Shown piece after piece: positions 1,502 to 16,568 of a stretch of DNA of 64,000 nucleotides. How positions within the stretch are numbered: the first letter of the stretch is position 1; each line of letters opens with the position of its first letter. The DNA lies in the NCBI GenBank assembly GCA_027065825.1, contig JAMONM010000058.1:38958-102957 (forward strand). The letters are read 5' to 3'. Source of the stretch: Campylobacterales bacterium (GTDB lineage Bacteria; Campylobacterota; Campylobacteria; Campylobacterales; Nitratiruptoraceae). Below the pieces are notes generated by a model that searched no databases, had not been told where the DNA came from, and saw only the letters and a list, made by a program, of their open reading frames with translations. The translations under genes and the position numbers were made by a program.

Positions 1502-3144
1502 TGAAACGACCTTTAATCGGCGATCTGCTGCAAAAACTGGGTTACGTCACTCCTGAGCAGCTACAGGTTGCTCTGGCCGTTCAGCGGATCAAAGGGAAAC
1601 TTCTCGGAGAATTGCTGATCGATCTAGATTTTGTTACCTCCGACGAGGTGGCCGAAGCGATCGCTATGCAAAGCTCCGCTCCTTTTGTGGATCTGGACAG
1701 AAGGCCTCCCGAGAACGAGGCCCTAAAGCTGGTTTCAAAGGAGCTTTGTTTAAAATATACCCTCTTGCCTTTGGAGGTGGAAAACGAAACTTTGATAGTA
1801 GCCGTGGAGGATCCCGAAGATCTGGAGGCGTACGATCAGCTTTACGCCTCTACGGGTTACGATATCGAGTTTGTGGTGGCGGCCAGAGAGAAGATTTTAC
1901 GATATATACAGATCTACTACTATCAGCTGGAAAATCCGATAGAAGAGAGCATCAAAGGCGCTATAGACAAGAACAGGGAGGAGTTTGACGCCGTAGGTTT
2001 TGTCGATCTACTGTTGAAACTGGCCATCAAGGAGAGAGCGACGGATCTGCATATAACTCCCCTTAGAGAGAGTTCCCACGTTTTTTACAGGCTCGATGGG
2101 GTATTGAAACACTATTTCGCTTTTGAAAAGAGATTTCATGCTCCCGTGATTTCGCGCATCAAGATTCTTTCTTCCATGAATATCGCCGAACAGAGATTAC
2201 CGCAAGACGGCGCTTTCGTTTTCGATTTTCTTGGAAGCGGCTACGATATTAGAAGCTCGACTCTGCCTACGGCCAACGGAGAGAATATGGTTATGAGGAT
2301 CCTATTTAAGGATTCGGCCCTTTTTAATATAAAAAGGTTGGGTTTTTCAAAAGAGCATATCCGAACTATTCGAAAAAACTTTTCGAAGCCAAACGGCATT
2401 ATATTGATTAGCGGTCCTACGGGCAGCGGCAAGACCACCACTCTCTATTCCGGTCTTAGGCTGATAGACAATCTGAAAAAGAATATTCTCAGCGTGGAAG
2501 ATCCCATAGAGTATAGGTTCTCGTTTATAAAGCAGTCTCAGGTAAACGAAAAGGCGGGGTACACCTTCGCAAAAGCGGTCAGAAACTTTATGCGCCAAGA
2601 TCCGGACGTGATGCTAATAGGCGAAATAAGGGACGAAGATACGGCGGAACTGGCTGTGAGAGCTTCGATAACGGGGCATCTGGTTTTATCCACGATACAT
2701 ACGAATTCGGCAGCCGGAGTGGTATCGAGACTGGAGGATTTCGGAGTCAAATCATATCTGCTGGCCGAGGCCCTTCGAATGGCCGTCTCGCAGCGTCTGC
2801 TCAGAAGACTGTGCGATTACTGCAAAGAGGAGATGTTCGTAGACGCTCAGTATCTAAAGAGGGAGCTATCGGAGAATATCTCTTTGGAGGGCGATAGGGT
2901 CAAAATTTACGGCGCCAAAGGCTGCTTTAGATGTAGAGGAACCGGATATAACGGCAGAGTCGCGGCCGCTAGCATAATAGAGTTTGACGATGAGCTCAAA
3001 GATATGATAATAAAAGGAAAGAGCGCTATAGAGATTGAACGTGCGGCGGCAGGCAGAGGCATGGCTACCCTGTTTGAGGATATGGTAGCTAAACTTCTTG
3101 CCGGTCTGACGAGTCTAGAAGAGATAAAAAGAGTGGCGGGATGA
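1501..3144 (+). CDS. GspE/PilB/MshE-family secretion/pilus assembly ATPase with N-terminal MshEN-like domain
   Basis: Walker A GPTGSGKTT, Walker B DVMLIGEIRD, His box HLVLSTIH, Zn motif CDYC...CFRC; two LGxxL...Q repeats at the N-terminus. Confidence 0.93.
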   Translation: MKRPLIGDLLQKLGYVTPEQLQVALAVQRIKGKLLGELLIDLDFVTSDEVAEAIAMQSSAPFVDLDRRPPENEALKLVSKELCLKYTLLPLEVENETLIVAVEDPEDLEAYDQLYASTGYDIEFVVAAREKILRYIQIYYYQLENPIEESIKGAIDKNREEFDAVGFVDLLLKLAIKERATDLHITPLRESSHVFYRLDGVLKHYFAFEKRFHAPVISRIKILSSMNIAEQRLPQDGAFVFDFLGSGYDIRSSTLPTANGENMVMRILFKDSALFNIKRLGFSKEHIRTIRKNFSKPNGIILISGPTGSGKTTTLYSGLRLIDNLKKNILSVEDPIEYRFSFIKQSQVNEKAGYTFAKAVRNFMRQDPDVMLIGEIRDEDTAELAVRASITGHLVLSTIHTNSAAGVVSRLEDFGVKSYLLAEALRMAVSQRLLRRLCDYCKEEMFVDAQYLKRELSENISLEGDRVKIYGAKGCFRCRGTGYNGRVAAASIIEFDDELKDMIIKGKSAIEIERAAAGRGMATLFEDMVAKLLAGLTSLEEIKRVAG

Positions 3145-4346
3145 GGCTCTATCTGCTAAAAAGCATAGATAGCCGAGGCAGAATTAGATACGAGTTTATA
3201 TGGAGCGATCCGGATCGACTCGCAGATCAACTAAGAGACAAAACCCCGCTGTTTGTCTTAGGGATTCCTTTTGTCAGAAGAGGATTCGCAAAGAGGGTCT
3301 CCAAAAGGATCTCAAGAGAGGATGCGATCGAGATTTTAGATTCGCTCCATATTCTTTTGAGGGCCGGGTTGTCCTTGCAAAAGGCTCTTAAAGAGCTTTT
3401 GACTGAACAAAGAAGCCGCTCTTCGAAACTCTTTTTGCAAAAGGCGTTGAAAAATATCGAAGAGGGCGGAGCCTTTTGGGAAGTTTTCGAGGAGTTTTCC
3501 GACTCTTTCGGCAAAGAGATAGTATCCCTGATAAAGATTTCGGAAAAGAGCGGCTCATTGCAATCGGGTCTGAAAAAGAGCTCGGAACTTTTGCAAAAAA
3601 AAAGAGAACTGGTTCGCGGAACGATACAGTCGGCGATCTATCCTCTTTTTGCGGTTATCGCAATCGGCAGCGCCATGGGGGTGTGGGTATATTTCGTTTT
3701 ACCGCAGCTGCTGGACACCTTTTATTTGATGGAGTTAGAACCGCCGGCTGTTTCGATATGGATGATGAAAGGCGCCGAGTTTTTAAAAGAGCATATTTTT
3801 TCGATCGGTTCGGCTTTTGCCATTGCGTCCGTCATATTCTATTTTATTCTCTTTAGATGGGAAAGAGGTCGATATTTTTTCGAGCGGATGCTGCTCGTTA
3901 CGCCATTCGTGGGCAGGTTTTTGCTCTATTACAAAACGGCACTTTTATTCGAGTATCTAAAAATAGCGATCGGTTCAGGTATGCCGCTGGTGGAGGCTTT
4001 GAAAAGTTCGGCCGAAGCTACAGAAAGTCCGCTCTTTAAAGAAAAATTATATAATGTAATAAAATTGTTAGAAAAAGGTTTTTCCTTTTCCGAGGCCCTT
4101 TCAAAGGATAAAATCTTTACGCCTCTTAGCGTCAGACTGGTTTCCATAGCGGAAGAAAGCGGCGATTTGGAGGAGCAGATGCGGCATCTGCAAAACTACT
4201 ATTACGATAAACTCAGATTCTACATGAACACCGCCTCAAAAAGCGCCGAACCGGTAATTGTGGTTATTCTGGGTCTTTTCATGGCATTAGTGATGATATC
4301 GTTGATTTCGCCGGTCTACGATCTTGTTTCCAAAGTCTCAGCTTAA
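3141..4346 (+). CDS. GspF/PilC-family inner-membrane platform protein
   Basis: Two T2SSF repeats (LLRAGLSL...SEKSGSL; IGSGMPL...AEESGDL) with three TM segments; follows the ATPase with an ATGA overlap. Confidence 0.92.
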   Translation: MRLYLLKSIDSRGRIRYEFIWSDPDRLADQLRDKTPLFVLGIPFVRRGFAKRVSKRISREDAIEILDSLHILLRAGLSLQKALKELLTEQRSRSSKLFLQKALKNIEEGGAFWEVFEEFSDSFGKEIVSLIKISEKSGSLQSGLKKSSELLQKKRELVRGTIQSAIYPLFAVIAIGSAMGVWVYFVLPQLLDTFYLMELEPPAVSIWMMKGAEFLKEHIFSIGSAFAIASVIFYFILFRWERGRYFFERMLLVTPFVGRFLLYYKTALLFEYLKIAIGSGMPLVEALKSSAEATESPLFKEKLYNVIKLLEKGFSFSEALSKDKIFTPLSVRLVSIAEESGDLEEQMRHLQNYYYDKLRFYMNTASKSAEPVIVVILGLFMALVMISLISPVYDLVSKVSA

Positions 4347-4350
4347 ATAA

Positions 4351-4379
4351 TTGAAATAAAAAAATTTTTTTGGTATAAT
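4351..4379 (+). promoter_or_regulatory. Sigma70-type promoter P1, driving the candidate sRNA
   Basis: TTGAAA (4351-4356), 17-nt spacer, extended -10 TGgTATAAT (TATAAT at 4374-4379). Confidence 0.8.
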
Positions 4380-4384
4380 GCTAC

Positions 4385-4434
4385 TTCCCCTCCCCCTATG
4401 TAGCAGTGGCCCCTTTTGGGGCCCGCTGCTTTTA
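4385..4434 (+). ncRNA. Candidate ~50-nt C-rich small RNA
   Basis: Lies between promoter P1 and an intrinsic terminator; no ORF; 5' tract UUCCCCUCCCCCU. The TSS is inferred from -10 spacing. Confidence 0.55.
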
Positions 4435-4436
4435 TT
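4402..4436 (+). terminator. Intrinsic terminator
   Basis: AGCAGTGGCCCC-TTTT-GGGGCCCGCTGCT stem (one bulge, one G-U pair) followed by TTTATT. Confidence 0.8.
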
Positions 4437-4451
4437 AATTTGTGGCCTTAA

Positions 4452-4480
4452 TTGAAAAAAAATTTTTTTTAGGGTATTAT
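4452..4480 (+). promoter_or_regulatory. Sigma70-type promoter P2 for the rpmE operon
   Basis: TTGAAA (4452-4457), 17-nt spacer, TATTAT (4475-4480). Confidence 0.7.
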
Positions 4481-4525
4481 TTCGCTCCTAAACTCTAAAT
4501 TAAAATCGTTTTTAAGGATCTGAAT

Positions 4526-4726
4526 ATGAAAAAAGGTATACATCCCGAATATATTGAGTGCGAAGTAACTTGCGCGTGCGGTAACCATTTTGTCGTATTT
4601 TCAAATAAACCGCAGCTAAAAATAGATATCTGCAACAAGTGTCACCCCTTCTTTACCGGCAGCGAAAAGATAGTGGACACTACCGGTAGGGTAGAGAAGT
4701 TCAAGAAAAAGTTCGGCCTCAAGTAG
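4526..4726 (+). CDS. rpmE: 50S ribosomal protein L31 (Zn-binding type)
   Basis: MKKGIHPEY...CACG...[10 protein letters not shown]...GRVEKF. Confidence 0.98.
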
Positions 4727-5539
4727 TTGCTGACTCTAGTTCCGACTCCTATCGGAAACGTAGAAGATATCACCTACAGGGCCGTAGAGGCTCTAAAGAG
4801 GGCTCAGGTATATCTTTGCGAGGACACCAGAGTCGCAAAAAAACTTTTTTCTCTGATAAAAGAGCGCTTTGGTGTCGAGCTACTGACTCCTTCAAAAAAA
4901 GTTATCAGCCTTCATCAGCACAACCAAAGTAGATTTTTAAAAGAGATCGATCCGGCTTTTTTCGAGCGGGAGGTGGTCTATCTAAGCGACGCCGGAATGC
5001 CCGCAATCAGCGATCCCGGAGCGGCTTTGGTTAGATATTGCCGAAAAAACGGTGTCGAATACGACGTTCTGCCGGGTGCCAGCGCTTTTGTAACTGCCTT
5101 TGCGGCTAGCGGATTTGAGGGCCCTTTTACTTTTTACGGCTTTTTGCCCTCTCGGGGCAAGGAGCGCTCCGTAGAGCTAAAACGAATTCTAAATAGCAAT
5201 ACCCATGCAATCGTGTACGAGGCGCCTCACCGTATAGAGGAGCTGATCGAGACTATAGCGAAAAACCATCCCGACAGAGAGCTTTTCGCGGCGAAAGAGC
5301 TAACAAAGAAGTTTCAACGATATTTTGCCGGCAGAGCCGAGGATATCTTAAAGGAGTTCTCCGAAATCTCCAAAAAAGGCGAATGGGTCGTCATAATATC
5401 GGCCAATAGGGACTCATGCGATATAGAGGAGATTTTGAATCTGGAACTGCCGATAGGCAAAAAGGCCAAGCTTCTAGCCGAAGCCACCGGCGAAAGCGCC
5501 AAGAGCTGGTATCGAAAACTCTTAAAAGATAATAATTAA
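4727..5539 (+). CDS. rsmI: 16S rRNA C1402 2'-O-methyltransferase
   Basis: LVPTPIGNVEDIT, CEDTR, SDAGMPAISDPG, YEAPHR, KELTK motifs; TTG start abuts the rpmE stop. Confidence 0.95.
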   Translation: MLTLVPTPIGNVEDITYRAVEALKRAQVYLCEDTRVAKKLFSLIKERFGVELLTPSKKVISLHQHNQSRFLKEIDPAFFEREVVYLSDAGMPAISDPGAALVRYCRKNGVEYDVLPGASAFVTAFAASGFEGPFTFYGFLPSRGKERSVELKRILNSNTHAIVYEAPHRIEELIETIAKNHPDRELFAAKELTKKFQRYFAGRAEDILKEFSEISKKGEWVVIISANRDSCDIEEILNLELPIGKKAKLLAEATGESAKSWYRKLLKDNN

Positions 5540-5603: not shown

Positions 5604-6284
5604 ATGATACTCTACGGAAAGCGGATCTTCGAGTATCTGTTGTCGAAGCATCCGCAAAAGATCAAAAGACTTTACCTGAGCAAAAAACCGGAGGGAGCCG
5701 TCGAGAGAAAATTGAAAAAACTCTCGATACCGATTGTCTATATAGATAACAAAAAGGCCCAGTCGCTCGCGAGAGGCGGAAACCATCAAGGTTACCTGGT
5801 GGAGACCGAGGAGTACTCCTATGCGGATTGGGAGAGCGTAAAAAATGGCGATTTTACCGTGGTTCTATGGGGGGTTACCGATATAGGCAATATCGGTTCG
5901 ATTATTAGAACCTCTTATGCCCTCGGAGTAGACAGCGTAATATTAACCGGAATCAAATCCAGCAATCCCTCCGGCTTTATTAGAACCAGCAGCGGAGCGG
6001 CCCTGGATATGGAGGTGGCTCTTTTCCCCGATGGATACGATCTGATAAACAGATTGAAAACTTCCGGTTTTGCTCTTTATTGCAGCACCTTGGAAGGCGG
6101 TGACATCAGAACTATCCGATTTGGCGGTAAAAGAGCCCTGGTTTTGGGTAGCGAAGGCGAAGGAGTTCCAAAAAAGGTCGAAAAGAGCTGCGACTATCTG
6201 GTCAAAATCGAAATGGCAAGAGATTTCGACTCTCTCAACGTTTCGGCCGCCGCCGCCATAATGATCGACAGGATGAGGCAATGA
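5604..6284 (+). CDS. rlmB: 23S rRNA Gm2251 methyltransferase (TrmH/SpoU family)
   Basis: NHQG, GNIGSIIRT, VLGSEGEG, DSLNVSAA motifs. Confidence 0.93.
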   Translation: MILYGKRIFEYLLSKHPQKIKRLYLSKKPEGAVERKLKKLSIPIVYIDNKKAQSLARGGNHQGYLVETEEYSYADWESVKNGDFTVVLWGVTDIGNIGSIIRTSYALGVDSVILTGIKSSNPSGFIRTSSGAALDMEVALFPDGYDLINRLKTSGFALYCSTLEGGDIRTIRFGGKRALVLGSEGEGVPKKVEKSCDYLVKIEMARDFDSLNVSAAAAIMIDRMRQ

Positions 6285-7129
6285 GCGACTTTGAAAGACT
6301 CAAAAGACTCGATATAAAAGAGATCCACGAAAAAACCTATATTCCGGTAAAAAATCTTGAACCGCTTTTAAACGGCGATTTCTCCAAATTCGATAGGCTA
6401 AAGGCGATAGGTTTTGTCAAAATTATCGAGCGCGAATTCGAAATGGATCTATCCGATCTAAAAGAGCAGATAGAGGAGTATTTTAAAGAGAGCAAAAACG
6501 ACAACCATTTCGTGGCTCACCAGTCTCAGGTGGAACAAAAACCGCAAAAGAGCAAAAAACCGATGTTCGTGATTGTTTTGGCTCTTTTGCTTCTAGGCGC
6601 GGCATCGATTATTCTTTTTCAATCTAAAACGGAAGACTCTAGAAATAACGCCGATGCGACCAAAATTTCAGGACAGATTACTGGCGAGGGCGACAGGGAG
6701 AGCGATAAAGATTTGGATAGAATTGACGAAAAAAGCTTTTTTACGGAGGAGAATCTAACTGAAAAGGAGATCGACAGCGAGGAGAATCTGACGGTAGAGG
6801 ACCAGAATCTTTCGAATCCCGAAGAGCCTGAACCGAAAGAGCCGAAAATATCCAAACTTTTCATTCTGCCTCAGGGAAAGATTTGGGTGGGGGTAATATA
6901 TCTGGACGATTACAGCAAACGCAACTTTCTCTCCTCTTCTCCCATAGAGTTAAACGCTTCGAAGGATCAGCTGATAGTTACCGGACACGGAATGTTTGCG
7001 CTGGACGTTGATGGAAACGTTACCGATTACAACGAAAAGGGCAAAGTCAGATTTTTGATCGAGGAAGGAAAAATAGAGAGGATCGATCTGCAGACTTTTA
7101 AAAATCTCAACAGGGGCAAAGCGTGGTAA
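6281..7129 (+). CDS. RodZ-like bitopic membrane protein (conserved Campylobacterota hypothetical)
   Basis: N-terminal HTH-like segment (IHEKTYIPVKNLEPLLNGDF), single TM, acidic linker, C-terminal beta domain; conserved position after rlmB. Confidence 0.6.
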   Translation: MSDFERLKRLDIKEIHEKTYIPVKNLEPLLNGDFSKFDRLKAIGFVKIIEREFEMDLSDLKEQIEEYFKESKNDNHFVAHQSQVEQKPQKSKKPMFVIVLALLLLGAASIILFQSKTEDSRNNADATKISGQITGEGDRESDKDLDRIDEKSFFTEENLTEKEIDSEENLTVEDQNLSNPEEPEPKEPKISKLFILPQGKIWVGVIYLDDYSKRNFLSSSPIELNASKDQLIVTGHGMFALDVDGNVTDYNEKGKVRFLIEEGKIERIDLQTFKNLNRGKAW

Positions 7130-13428: not shown

Positions 13429-14367
13429 ATGCTCGACCTTGCCATTATAGGAGGAGGACCTGCGGGGCTGACGGCCGGTCTGTACGCTACGAGGGGCGGA
13501 TTAAAAAGCGTCGTTATGTACGAAAAGGGCATGCCGGGAGGACAGATAACGCAGTCGAGCGAGGTAGAGAACTACCCGGGCGTATGCGAAGTGGTCACGG
13601 GAATGGAGCTGATGGAGTGTTGGCCCAAGCAGTGTATGAGATTCGGACTGAAACACGAGATGAAAGAGGTTTTGCGAATATCCAAAAAGAACTCCGTTTT
13701 TACGGTGCATCTGCAAAACGAAACCGTCGAGGCCAAATCTGTTATCGTGGCCACAGGCTCAACTCCAAAACGTGCCGGTTTCGAGGGAGAAGAGGAGTTT
13801 TTGGGAAAAGGGGTCAGTACCTGCGCCACGTGCGACGGCTTTTTTTATAAAGACAAAGAAGTGGCGGTTCTTGGAGGGGGTGATACGGCACTCGAAGAGG
13901 CGATCTTTTTATCAAAAATAGCTTCGAAAGTATATCTGATCCACAGACGCGAAAGCTTTAGAGCCGCTCCGGCTACAGTAGAGAGAGCTATAAAAAACGA
14001 AAAGATCGAATTTATCCTAAACGCCACGGTCAAAAAAGCCTACGGCAACGCTATGGGGCTTGAGGGGATAATTCTATCCAAAAATGGAGAGGAGATAGAT
14101 CTGAAAGTTCCCGGCATTTTCGTATTTGTCGGTATGAGGGTCAACAACGAGGTGTTGAAACAGGAGGACGGATCGTATCTTTGTTCCCTCACGGAATGGG
14201 GGGAGGTGAAGGTAGATTTGAGAATGAGAACAGACGTACCGGGACTGTTCGCGGCCGGCGATATCAGGCAGGAGGCCCCGAAACAGGTTGTTTGTGCGGC
14301 CGCTGACGGCGCGACGGCCGCTATCGAGGCGATTTCTTACGTAGAGAAGATAGGGGAGGTTGGATAA
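13429..14367 (+). CDS. trxB: Thioredoxin-disulfide reductase
   Basis: GGGPAG, CATCDG, GGGDTA, FAAGD motifs. Confidence 0.98.
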
Positions 14368-15131
14368 TGTTGAATATAGGCGTTTTCGGAGGAAGCGGTC
14401 GCGTTGGCAGGCTACTGATAGAGAACCTGAAAAACGACAAAGAGGCGAGACTGCGCGCGGTTCACGTTCAAAAGGGAATAGATATCGATCTAAAAGATGT
14501 CGTGGTTACCAACGATCTGAAAGTTCTGCTAAAAGAGAGCGACGTCGTTATAGATTTTACTCTACCCGAGGGGACCGAGGAGCTTTTGAAGGAGGCGTTA
14601 AAGACACCTACTCCGATCGTCAGCGGTACGACCGGACTGAGCGAGCATCAGTTGAATCTTATGAGAGAGGCCTCAAAACATATGCCTATCCTTTACGCGA
14701 CCAATATGTCTTTGGGAATAGCTCTGCTTAATAGACTTGTGGAGCTGGCTTCTAAAAAACTGAGAGAGTTCGATATAGAGATTACAGAAATGCACCATCG
14801 CTATAAAAAAGACGCTCCCAGCGGTACGGCTCTGACTTTGGCTGAATTTGCAGCCAGGGCCAGAGGTCTGGATCTGCAAAAGGTGAGAGTCAGCGGCAGA
14901 AACGGAAATATAGGAGAAAGAAGCAAGGAGGAGATAGGAGTTTTCGCGTTGAGGGGAGGAGATATAGTCGGCAGACACACCGTTGGATTCTATAACGAAG
15001 GGGAGTTTTTGGAGCTAACCCATACGGCCACGAGTAGGGATACTTTTGCAAAAGGGGCTATAAAGGCGGCGAAATGGATCGTTTCGCAAGATAGCGGTTT
15101 TTATTCTATTTACGACTGTTTAGGATTATAA
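14367..15131 (+). CDS. dapB: 4-hydroxy-tetrahydrodipicolinate reductase
   Basis: [34 protein letters not shown] motifs. Confidence 0.97.
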
Positions 15132-16546: not shown

Positions 16547-16568
16547 CCCTTCCAGCAAGGAGGGGAGT

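Follow-up and report, generated by a model that had tools for sequence, protein, structure and literature searches.

A conserved C-rich, hairpin-forming RNA element precedes the bL31 gene rpmE in mostly vent-dwelling Campylobacterota

The sequence upstream of rpmE, which encodes ribosomal protein bL31, was analysed in a 64,000 nt stretch of Campylobacterales DNA, referred to here as the window. A promoter, a C-rich tract and a hairpin in this region make up a genuine RNA element that, as judged by sequence comparison, is conserved and had not been described before, and the element is not a chance feature. Its most plausible role, proposed here tentatively, is that of a cis-acting leader or attenuator of rpmE.

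The features of the window locus are listed in Table 1. Transcription from the upstream promoter P1 is predicted to start at approximately 4385–4387, at or near the first base of a conserved 20-mer whose final four nucleotides, GCAG, form the base of the hairpin. The hairpin sequence is GCAGTGGCCCC-TTTT-GGGGCC(C)GCTGC, followed by TTTTATTAATTT, and together the hairpin and U-rich tail resemble an intrinsic terminator that would give an RNA of ~48–50 nt from P1, with read-through possible. A first-pass annotation of this DNA had described a near-consensus promoter, a C-rich stretch and a hairpin with no open reading frame between them, and all of these were confirmed in place; its suggestion that a strong promoter drives a short C-rich RNA ending in a hairpin is supported by the predicted P1 and hairpin. 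The plus strand between 4347 and 4525 contained no open reading frame of at least 30 amino acids, and an ATG-TAG at 4399–4404 is a bare start-stop pair that is not conserved among relatives. An antisense small open reading frame passing through the element (reverse frame ..LLHRGRG..) was rejected because close relatives differ from one another in hairpin length by single nucleotides. The annotation had also proposed that GCTAC and GTAGC could pair to present the C-tract as a loop; this pairing does exist in the window, but it is not conserved in Nitrosophilus kaiyonis or N. alvini and lies upstream of the expected P1 start.

Table 1. Features at the rpmE locus of the window (nucleotide positions within the window).
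Feature	Position	Strand	Basis
GspF/PilC platform family gene, upstream neighbour, outside the element	3141-4346	+	ORF; NCBIfam GspF 171.8 bits, below equivalog cut-off
32-nt direct repeat, first copy, spanning P1	4348-4379	+	repeat search
P1, TTGAAA-17-TGgTATAAT	4351-4379	+	promoter scan 11/12 with TG extension
P1 -35 box, TTGAAA	4351-4356	+	17-nt spacer
P1 extended -10 box, TGgTATAAT	4371-4379	+	17-nt spacer
GCTACTT, joining the P1 -10 box to the 20-mer CCCCTCCCCCTATGTAGCAG		+	sequence
C-tract TTCCCCTCCCCCT	4385-4397	+	sequence
Conserved 20-mer CCCCTCCCCCTATGTAGCAG, predicted single-stranded, at or near the P1 transcript 5' end	4387-4406	+	
Hairpin with GC-rich stem, UUUU loop and one bulged C	4402-4430	+	folding
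U-rich tail TTTTATTAATTT	4430-4441	+	terminator-like site in pattern scan
32-nt direct repeat, second copy, spanning P2	4449-4480	+	repeat search
P2, TTGAAA-17-TATTAT	4452-4480	+	promoter scan 10/12
P2 -35 box, TTGAAA	4452-4457	+	
P2 -10 box, TATTAT	4475-4480	+	
Short rpmE leader from P2, starting TTTCGCTCCTAAA	4481-4525	+	sequence
rpmE Shine-Dalgarno sequence AAGGA	4514-4518	+	sequence
rpmE, bL31 zinc-ribbon form with CxxC motifs	4526-4726	+	ORF, PF01197
rsmI, rRNA methyltransferase	4727-5539	+	TIGR00096 239 bits, above cut-off
rlmB, rRNA methyltransferase	5604-6284	+	TIGR00186 162 bits, above cut-off

The second promoter, P2, lies within a repeat copy that is 78% identical over 32 nt to the P1 copy and is located 101 nt downstream of it. 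The 5' end predicted for the P2 transcript, TTTCGCTCCTAAA, is the usual start of rpmE mRNA in the phylum, and the rpmE promoters of Sulfurimonas, Sulfurovum and Nitratiruptor loci are likewise followed by TCGCTCC..AAAA. The L31 protein encoded in the window is 94% identical to that of N. kaiyonis and 83% identical to that of N. alvini. The gene order rpmE-rsmI-rlmB is common to all relatives examined, and a cj0155c-cj0151c cluster has been described as conserved across the class (PMC3847290). The window sequence was present in hydrothermal-vent metagenome runs, all of which were DNA, and the RNA runs searched for the window element and for loci L017 and L082 contained none of them.

The folding of the element was examined in the window and in an alignment of its relatives. 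The window hairpin gave a minimum free energy of -22.9 kcal/mol and a z-score of -4.87, with 0 of 200 shuffled sequences folding as well. The 40 distinct sequences collected gave a clean alignment containing a helix of 12 pairs, in which 95.7% of cells were paired and six of the 12 pairs had changes on both sides. The covariation score of 0.435, compared to 0.238 in shuffled alignments, was reached by none of 500 shuffles, and sliding the helix out of register lowered the paired cells to 31–60%. RNAalifold independently returned the same helix with 11 pairs and an open C-tract. The C-tract was described as single-stranded in the first-pass annotation and was indeed unpaired in every prediction made, whether for the window, for the rpmE leaders described below as type A or with RNAalifold. 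The basal GCAG/CUGC pairs are invariant and the stem-foot pairs C-G, A-U and G-C never change, while the upper stem and the U/A-rich loops vary freely in both sequence and length, with compensatory changes. The conserved 5' single strand therefore reads CCCCUCCCCCUAU(G/A)U(A/G)GCAG, with its last four bases at the base of the variable hairpin. The relatives were used to build a covariance model, which scored the window site at 63.5 bits (E 2e-14) and the next-best site in the 64 kb at just 9.5 bits, so the element is single-copy in the window. The terminator pattern scan by itself showed no enrichment in the window, with one site found and 2.3 expected.

The distribution of the element was determined with two separate scans. 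The first used an L31 protein query against one genome per species, with no use of the motif, and found the C-tract and hairpin before rpmE in L001 and L017, both genomes of uncultured Campylobacterales. The second was a metagenome scan with CCCTCCCCCTATRTRGCAG, which gave 51 loci, 40 of them with a -10 box ~5–7 nt ahead of the C run and a GCAG hairpin behind it. In all 40 distinct sequences rpmE lies downstream on the same strand wherever the contig reaches far enough. The metagenome set was selected by an exact 19-mer and its invariance over those bases is partly by construction, so the independent support for conservation rests on the 14 loci found through L31 (~8 distinct sequences), nine of which have the exact core and five small changes. 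Among the loci retrieved without the motif, CCCCTCCCCCTATGTAGCAG is exact in L001, L017, L132, L133 and L144 and carries small changes in L134-136 and L141/142. Conservation of the C-tract in relatives, which the first-pass annotation had set as a test of its proposal, is strong.

The element was confirmed in the N. kaiyonis and N. alvini contigs fetched via L31, and was identified by the covariance model in Nitratiruptor sp. SB155-2 (AP009178) at 47 bits. Three contigs from metagenomes or metagenome-assembled genomes (MAGs) have a shorter C-tract, ..CATCCTCCCCCTATGTAGCAG, and one Sulfurospirillaceae MAG has the element with a one-base insertion. The remaining sequence types cluster with Hydrogenimonas, Sulfurovum/Nitratifractor and Sulfurospirillum in L31 clusters of 90% identity, and the carriers belong to four families of mostly vent-dwelling Campylobacterota. 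The order gspE-gspF-element-rpmE-rsmI-rlmB of the window is matched in N. kaiyonis; across the carriers the gene preceding the element may be gspF, rsmE or divergent pilin genes, with rpmE constant. The comparison of rpmE upstream regions across Campylobacterota that the annotation had called for thus placed the element in 40 distinct sequences and showed it to be absent from the Helicobacter and Campylobacter loci examined, where the covariance model also gave no match upstream of rpmE. It was likewise missing before rpmE in the Arcobacter and Nautiliales loci examined, and in the Sulfurospirillum 'multispecies' group, Sulfurovum lithotrophicum-type genomes and Sulfurimonas, which have other leaders. 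Other rpmE leaders in the phylum likewise have a C run beside or inside a hairpin, for example GCAGCGCCCCCUGC in the Sulfurovum type and the loop CCCCCAUA in Sulfurimonas.

An Rfam cmscan of positions 3800–5000 with E values up to 10 returned noise only, with no L31 leader or small-RNA family, and at gathering score the whole window gave a single tRNA. No Rfam family matched the other rpmE leader types of the phylum. A conserved-motif search found no 16S, 23S or 5S rRNA in the window or in any fetched locus; a 5S-rRNA-like CCCAUCCCGAAC located just past the element in L086 was dismissed, since the quantity of sequence scanned would yield such a match by chance.

The loci containing the element fall into two architectures. 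In type A, comprising 17 of the 40 loci, the rpmE ATG is located 24–38 nt past the hairpin with no intervening promoter, so the element is the 5' end of the rpmE mRNA. The members of this type include N. alvini, which has P1 only and no terminator-like site, Hydrogenimonas-like and Sulfurovum-like loci and some Sulfurospirillaceae loci. Three Sulfurospirillaceae loci (L141, L104 and L115) place a U-tailed hairpin inside the sole rpmE 5' UTR, an attenuator-like layout. Type B comprises the window, N. kaiyonis, SB155-2 and many Sulfurospirillum-like loci, and is characterised by a hairpin-to-ATG gap of 64–392 nt that contains a conserved second promoter followed by TTCGCTCC. The ~17 Sulfurospirillum-like loci of type B have a strong terminator with 5–7 U, and in them rpmE is served by a separate conserved promoter and has a leader hairpin of its own, CUUG..CAAG, with the covarying form CCUG..CAGG in L097. 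The U-tail is moderate in the window and consists of 1–3 U in N. alvini, N. kaiyonis and Hydrogenimonas-like loci; it is poor or absent in N. kaiyonis and SB155-2, and no terminator-like site was found in the latter.

Both types occur within one family and even within one genus, indicating that the element has switched repeatedly between a leader and a separately terminated unit. In the window, sequence comparison makes this switch visible as a promoter duplication, P2 being a copy of P1. The first-pass annotation had described a stand-alone small RNA that is not simply the rpmE leader, and this description applies in part. By sequence, the window and many of the Sulfurospirillum-like loci have a good terminator and a conserved second promoter, as would fit an independent transcription unit, but this layout is not seen in N. 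alvini or in the Hydrogenimonas-like and Sulfurovum-like loci. The separation from rpmE is not general, as 17 of the 40 loci, N. alvini among them, have no second promoter. P2 in the window is itself a duplicate of P1.

The explanation that we favour, with a confidence that falls somewhat short of even, is that the element is a new cis-acting leader or attenuator of rpmE, probably sensing free bL31; its linkage and structure are observed in the alignment, and the ligand and mode of action are those that we infer. It is rated the most likely because of the linkage, the structure, the precedent of the L31 leaders and the C runs in other rpmE leaders of the phylum. The function for which the element is conserved would be the control of bL31 synthesis in cis. 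Transcription from P1 would start at or just before the invariant single strand, and the predicted RNA would either run into rpmE or stop at the hairpin. In many genomes this RNA would be the only 5' UTR of rpmE, and it would stop in those where the hairpin has acquired a U-tail and rpmE is transcribed from a second promoter. A factor bound to the exposed C-tract and the stem foot may set the amount of transcription or translation that reaches rpmE, and an invariant single strand running into an invariant stem foot, with the rest of the stem free to vary, fits a recognition site at the junction between single strand and helix. By analogy with known L31 leaders the factor is most plausibly free bL31, its binding here being a conjecture drawn from that analogy. 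Where the hairpin has a U-tail, binding would alter termination, as an occupied GCAG weakens the foot of the terminator, and where the U-tail is missing the action would be on translation or mRNA decay. In the lineage of the window the promoter duplication, with its spacing of 101 nt, and a fairly good U-tail may have partly uncoupled the element from rpmE, and the locus probably yields both the short RNA of ~48–50 nt and some read-through transcript. Simple sequestration of the rpmE Shine-Dalgarno sequence by the C-tract was rejected: in 14 complete type A leaders the C-tract was 0.51–0.98 unpaired, the Shine-Dalgarno sequence was mostly free and the contact between them was limited to 3–4 bp or fewer. 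The same 14 leaders gave no alternative antiterminator fold involving the C-tract.

A purely cis-acting operator should be dispensable in the ~17 Sulfurospirillum-like loci where rpmE has its own promoter, yet the element is kept unchanged there, which favours a function in trans. This supports a possible though doubtful alternative, in which the element is a trans-acting small RNA of ~50 nt whose 5' C-rich, anti-Shine-Dalgarno-like seed pairs with G-rich sequences elsewhere. The adjacency to rpmE would then reflect co-regulation or shared ancestry, and the copies fused to rpmE would be freed by termination or processing. In the window and these ~17 loci a near-consensus promoter and a canonical terminator (5–7 U, moderate in the window) are accompanied by a separate conserved rpmE promoter. 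An invariant unpaired seed next to a freely covarying terminator stem is also the classic conservation pattern of a small RNA, and CCUCC, read directly from the sequence, is the anti-Shine-Dalgarno core. Against this, the element is the sole rpmE 5' UTR in 17 of 40 loci, including that of a congener, N. alvini, and the missing U-tail leaves the element of N. kaiyonis and SB155-2 with no defined 3' end. The target searches argue in the same direction. The best duplex in the window was with the dapB ribosome-binding site at -22.3 kcal/mol, which was not significant compared to shuffled seeds (p ~0.085), and no recurrent complementary site was found in 283 kb of related loci. The window contained no 9-mer complement of the seed and nine 8-mer complements elsewhere. 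One of these is the match GGAGGGGA at 16559 pointed out in the first-pass annotation, which is present but not significant. Moreover a C-rich seed of any kind matches strong Shine-Dalgarno sequences non-specifically. A G-rich match inside the rlmB-like genes of two loci was discarded as the codons of a GSEGEG motif, which the window does not have.

The exact 19-mer was also found away from rpmE in vent metagenomes. Two diverged filamentous-phage contigs (L084 and L126) carry the motif in the intergenic region before rep, and the exact 20-nt complement upstream of rep is a further point for a small RNA, although the phage site may serve phage DNA replication and not RNA pairing. L084 is inovirus-like, with an origin-nicking Rep, Zot, a pIV secretin and an integrase, and the motif is located between the pIV and Rep genes. 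The phage coding strand reads CUGCUA(U/C)AUAGGGGGAGGGG, ~20–25 nt past a TATAAT box, and in the alignment of the two contigs the motif stands out as conserved within an intergenic region that otherwise diverges. Two other contigs (L108 and L127) have the motif just past murB, without the typical hairpin. By a rough estimate the exact matches in AT-rich vent sequence are far above chance, while approximately six matches in unrelated metagenomes and one in the GC-rich contig L125 are close to chance expectation. The L125 match falls at the ribosome-binding site of a 917-aa protein. No contig of the viral collection contained the 18-mer core and the phage Rep had no relative there; Rfam gave no family in the phage intergenic region. 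The phage copy is unlikely to be an integration site because it lies inside the phage, between pIV and Rep, with an integrase gene and tRNA genes located at opposite ends of the contig.

In the phages the motif may act as a pairing partner or sponge for the host RNA, or it may belong to a complementary-strand origin that copies an initial transcribed sequence of the host. The first of these possibilities extends to an explanation that we regard as unlikely, in which the whole 20-nt 5' end is a base-pairing module common to host and virus, with the host RNA either pairing with the phage rep leader or being sponged by it; the exact complement in the phages is located near the start of the predicted rep transcript. 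If this were the case, pairing by an RNA made in the bL31 promoter region would link the replication of the phage to the state of host ribosome synthesis. Strong ribosome-binding sites might in addition be contested between 30S subunits and this same anti-Shine-Dalgarno-like RNA.

It is rather improbable that the conserved 20-mer acts as DNA or at transcription initiation and not as folded RNA. A DNA-binding protein might use it as an operator just past the start site; alternatively, as the initial transcribed sequence, it might determine promoter escape or pausing, with C-rich RNA formed on a G-rich template and followed by a -10-like TATRTR. The motif is at a near-fixed distance of ~5–7 nt from the -10 box in every locus, and a GC-rich stretch (TCGCTCC) comes right behind the -10 box in rpmE promoters throughout the phylum. 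The motif also recurs past murB in L108 and L127, and the two inovirus-like contigs have it, unaccompanied by the GCAG hairpin, in their structured origin region between the genes for the pIV secretin and Rep. There the filamentous phages would have reproduced the host site at their replication origin, for instance to serve as a priming site at which host polymerase starts the complementary strand, and its orientation is such that the C-rich strand would be made on the packaged plus-strand DNA; this reading of the phage origin is drawn by analogy from general knowledge of the Ff phages. The site is not palindromic, however, and no candidate DNA-binding protein is known. The adjoining hairpin covaries as RNA or single-stranded nucleic acid, and the invariant GCAG with its invariant CUGC partner points to a structured transcript.

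That the hairpin is a mere terminator of the gspE-gspF pilus or secretion operon, with the promoter-like and C-rich sequences there by chance, is very improbable and effectively refuted by the comparative data: in the window the hairpin does lie 56 nt past the stop codon of gspF, and the gene order is shared by N. kaiyonis, but an identical element that brings its own conserved promoter and is recovered by the covariance model at E 2e-14 occurs after rsmE, divergent pilin genes and in other contexts, always before rpmE, and lacks the U-tail in several relatives. The reservation in the first-pass annotation that the hairpin might only terminate the pilus operon is thereby removed.

No ribosomal-protein leader and very few regulatory RNAs have been described for the free-living, mostly vent-dwelling Campylobacterota. 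The conserved part of the element is a single-stranded, anti-Shine-Dalgarno-like C-tract and not a structured pocket, which is unusual for a ribosomal-protein operator. The occurrence of the element as a 5' UTR, an attenuator-like leader and a separately terminated unit provides a natural series for the interconversion of cis leaders and free small RNAs, and its exact complement, present in two filamentous-phage contigs, is a hint of an interaction between host and phage, at the RNA or at the origin, that has so far not been sought. The element is directly testable because it is short, is represented by 40 examples with clean covariation and occurs in the cultured SB155-2, N. kaiyonis and N. 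alvini.

When compared with known systems, the element shares some features with the small RNAs RepG and CJnc190 of the same phylum, a class of which the first-pass annotation had taken it to be a minimal member or analogue. RepG of Helicobacter pylori is a C/U-rich small RNA that pairs with a G-rich mRNA leader (PMC8295292), CJnc190 of Campylobacter jejuni is of the same kind according to the annotation, and the C-rich unpaired segment of the element could similarly base-pair with ribosome-binding sites or G-rich leaders; the copy in the window also has its own promoter and a terminator-like 3' end. The assignment is not supported, however. The C/U-rich segment of RepG is located in the terminator loop, while the C-tract of the element is a 5' tail, and the element would give an RNA of ~50 nt, is tied to rpmE and is often simply the rpmE leader. 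No homology to RepG or CJnc190 was detected, no Rfam match and no significant G-rich target in the window were obtained, and none of the Helicobacter or Campylobacter loci examined has the element.

Ribosomal-protein attenuators offer a second comparison. [quoted passage not shown] The element differs in that no alternative antiterminator or anti-antiterminator fold is evident and many relatives are without a U-tail.

The closest resemblance is to the L31 leaders. Five unrelated L31 leader motifs are known, from Actinobacteria, Coriobacteria, Corynebacteriaceae, Firmicutes and Gammaproteobacteria (Eckert and Weinberg 2020, PMC7247131); every one of them consists of a single hairpin and is limited to one lineage, and none is from Campylobacterota (PMC7247131). 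In E. coli, L31 and L31p repress rpmE through a hairpin in the 5' UTR (PMC9825181). Like these leaders, the element is located directly before rpmE on the same strand, has a single covarying hairpin, is limited to one phylum and is the sole rpmE 5' UTR in many genomes. The differences are that in an Rfam scan it matches no described motif in sequence or structure, that it conserves a 16-nt single-stranded C-rich 5' tail together with the stem foot, and that approximately half of its loci add a terminator tail and a second promoter. The key feature of the E. coli rpmE operator is an internal loop or bulge in a long stem (PMC9825181), unlike the element described here. Overall the element is most like an L31 ribosomal leader in its position and predicted structure, and it is classed here as a probable leader of this ribosomal-protein kind or a small RNA that has arisen from one.

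Two filamentous-phage contigs, L084 and L126, contained a sequence exactly complementary to the host's C-tract 20-mer, the cytosine-rich segment of the element upstream of rpmE. The gene content was that of an inovirus-like prophage, comprising an integrase, coat protein, Zot, pIV secretin and Rep, and the complement lay in a structured intergenic stretch that separates the pIV gene from the Rep gene, with a TATAAT box located approximately 20–25 nt upstream on the coding strand. The 20-mer complement was kept in both phage contigs while they were divergent elsewhere. The coordinates of this and the other features are given in the following table.

Positions of 20-mer copies and complements, rpmE leaders and apparent rpmE mRNA starts (L, fetched related locus or contig)
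Feature	Location	Strand	Context
20-mer motif	L084 6305-6323, within region 6217-6584	-	exact complement of host 20-mer
20-mer motif	L126 304-322	-	exact complement of host 20-mer
Reverse complement of 20-mer, CUGCUACAUAGGGGGAGGGGAG	L125 8936-8957		abuts AUG of 917-aa protein gene
C-tract 20-mer	L127 1446-1515; L108 9921-9957		directly 3' of murB stop codon
Second-promoter leader hairpin, AAACCCAAAU-CUUGUUAUCGUAUGCAAG	L082, L086, L090, L092, L093, L097, L099, L100, L103 and others		20-60 nt upstream of rpmE
~40-nt conserved insert	L085, L092, L096, L100, L103, L128, L129		between element terminator and second promoter
Sulfurovum/Nitratifractor-type rpmE leader	L145 1330-1500; L146, L002, L005		conserved, structured
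Sulfurimonas-type rpmE leader	L003, L004		conserved, structured
GC-rich TCGCTCC, then AAAA	window 4481-4489; rpmE promoters of L003, L004, L019, L144, L145		directly after -10 box

A further complement occurred in L125, a GC-rich vent contig, where CUGCUACAUAGGGGGAGGGGAG, by its position next to the AUG, makes up the RBS of the gene for a 917-aa protein with an HExxH motif, a match that may be due to chance given the high GC content. The top match to the C-tract in the window was the dapB RBS (AUAGGGGAGG, 14340–14370) at -22.3 kcal/mol, which was not significant against shuffled seeds in the window. In L086, CCCAUCCCGAAC (1432–1443) directly follows the U-tail of the element and resembles the conserved loop C sequence of 5S rRNA; such matches were at chance level across all fetched sequence.

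The 20-mer was also present after murB in two vent contigs with homologous context, L127, where a convergent tpx gene follows, and L108. These copies lack the usual GCAG hairpin and are preceded by GGGG-N3-5, able to pair with the first C run; the covariance model of the element scored them at 33.5 bits (L127) and 24.6 bits (L108).

The second-promoter hairpin was conserved in Sulfurospirillum-like loci, covaries to CCUG..CAGG in L097 and is followed directly by the rpmE Shine-Dalgarno; it may represent an rpmE leader motif in its own right. The ~40-nt insert (AUCUCCUCRGCGGAGUGCYCRCGKRCAGAUGAACMGYMC) forms two small hairpins and reads GAGGAG-N7-ATG on the opposite strand.

Two other rpmE leaders, neither matched in Rfam, both expose a run of C. 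The Sulfurovum/Nitratifractor type is ~130 nt long with several hairpins, including ..UUGCAGCGCCCCCUGC-loop-GCAGCGGAAGG.., while the Sulfurimonas type is a 7-bp hairpin with the loop CCCCCAUA and one compensatory change. From promoter sequences, TCGCTCC and AAAA appear to be the start of rpmE mRNAs across the phylum. Within AT-rich intergenic DNA, the TCGCTCC following the rpmE -10 box resembles a GC-rich discriminator.
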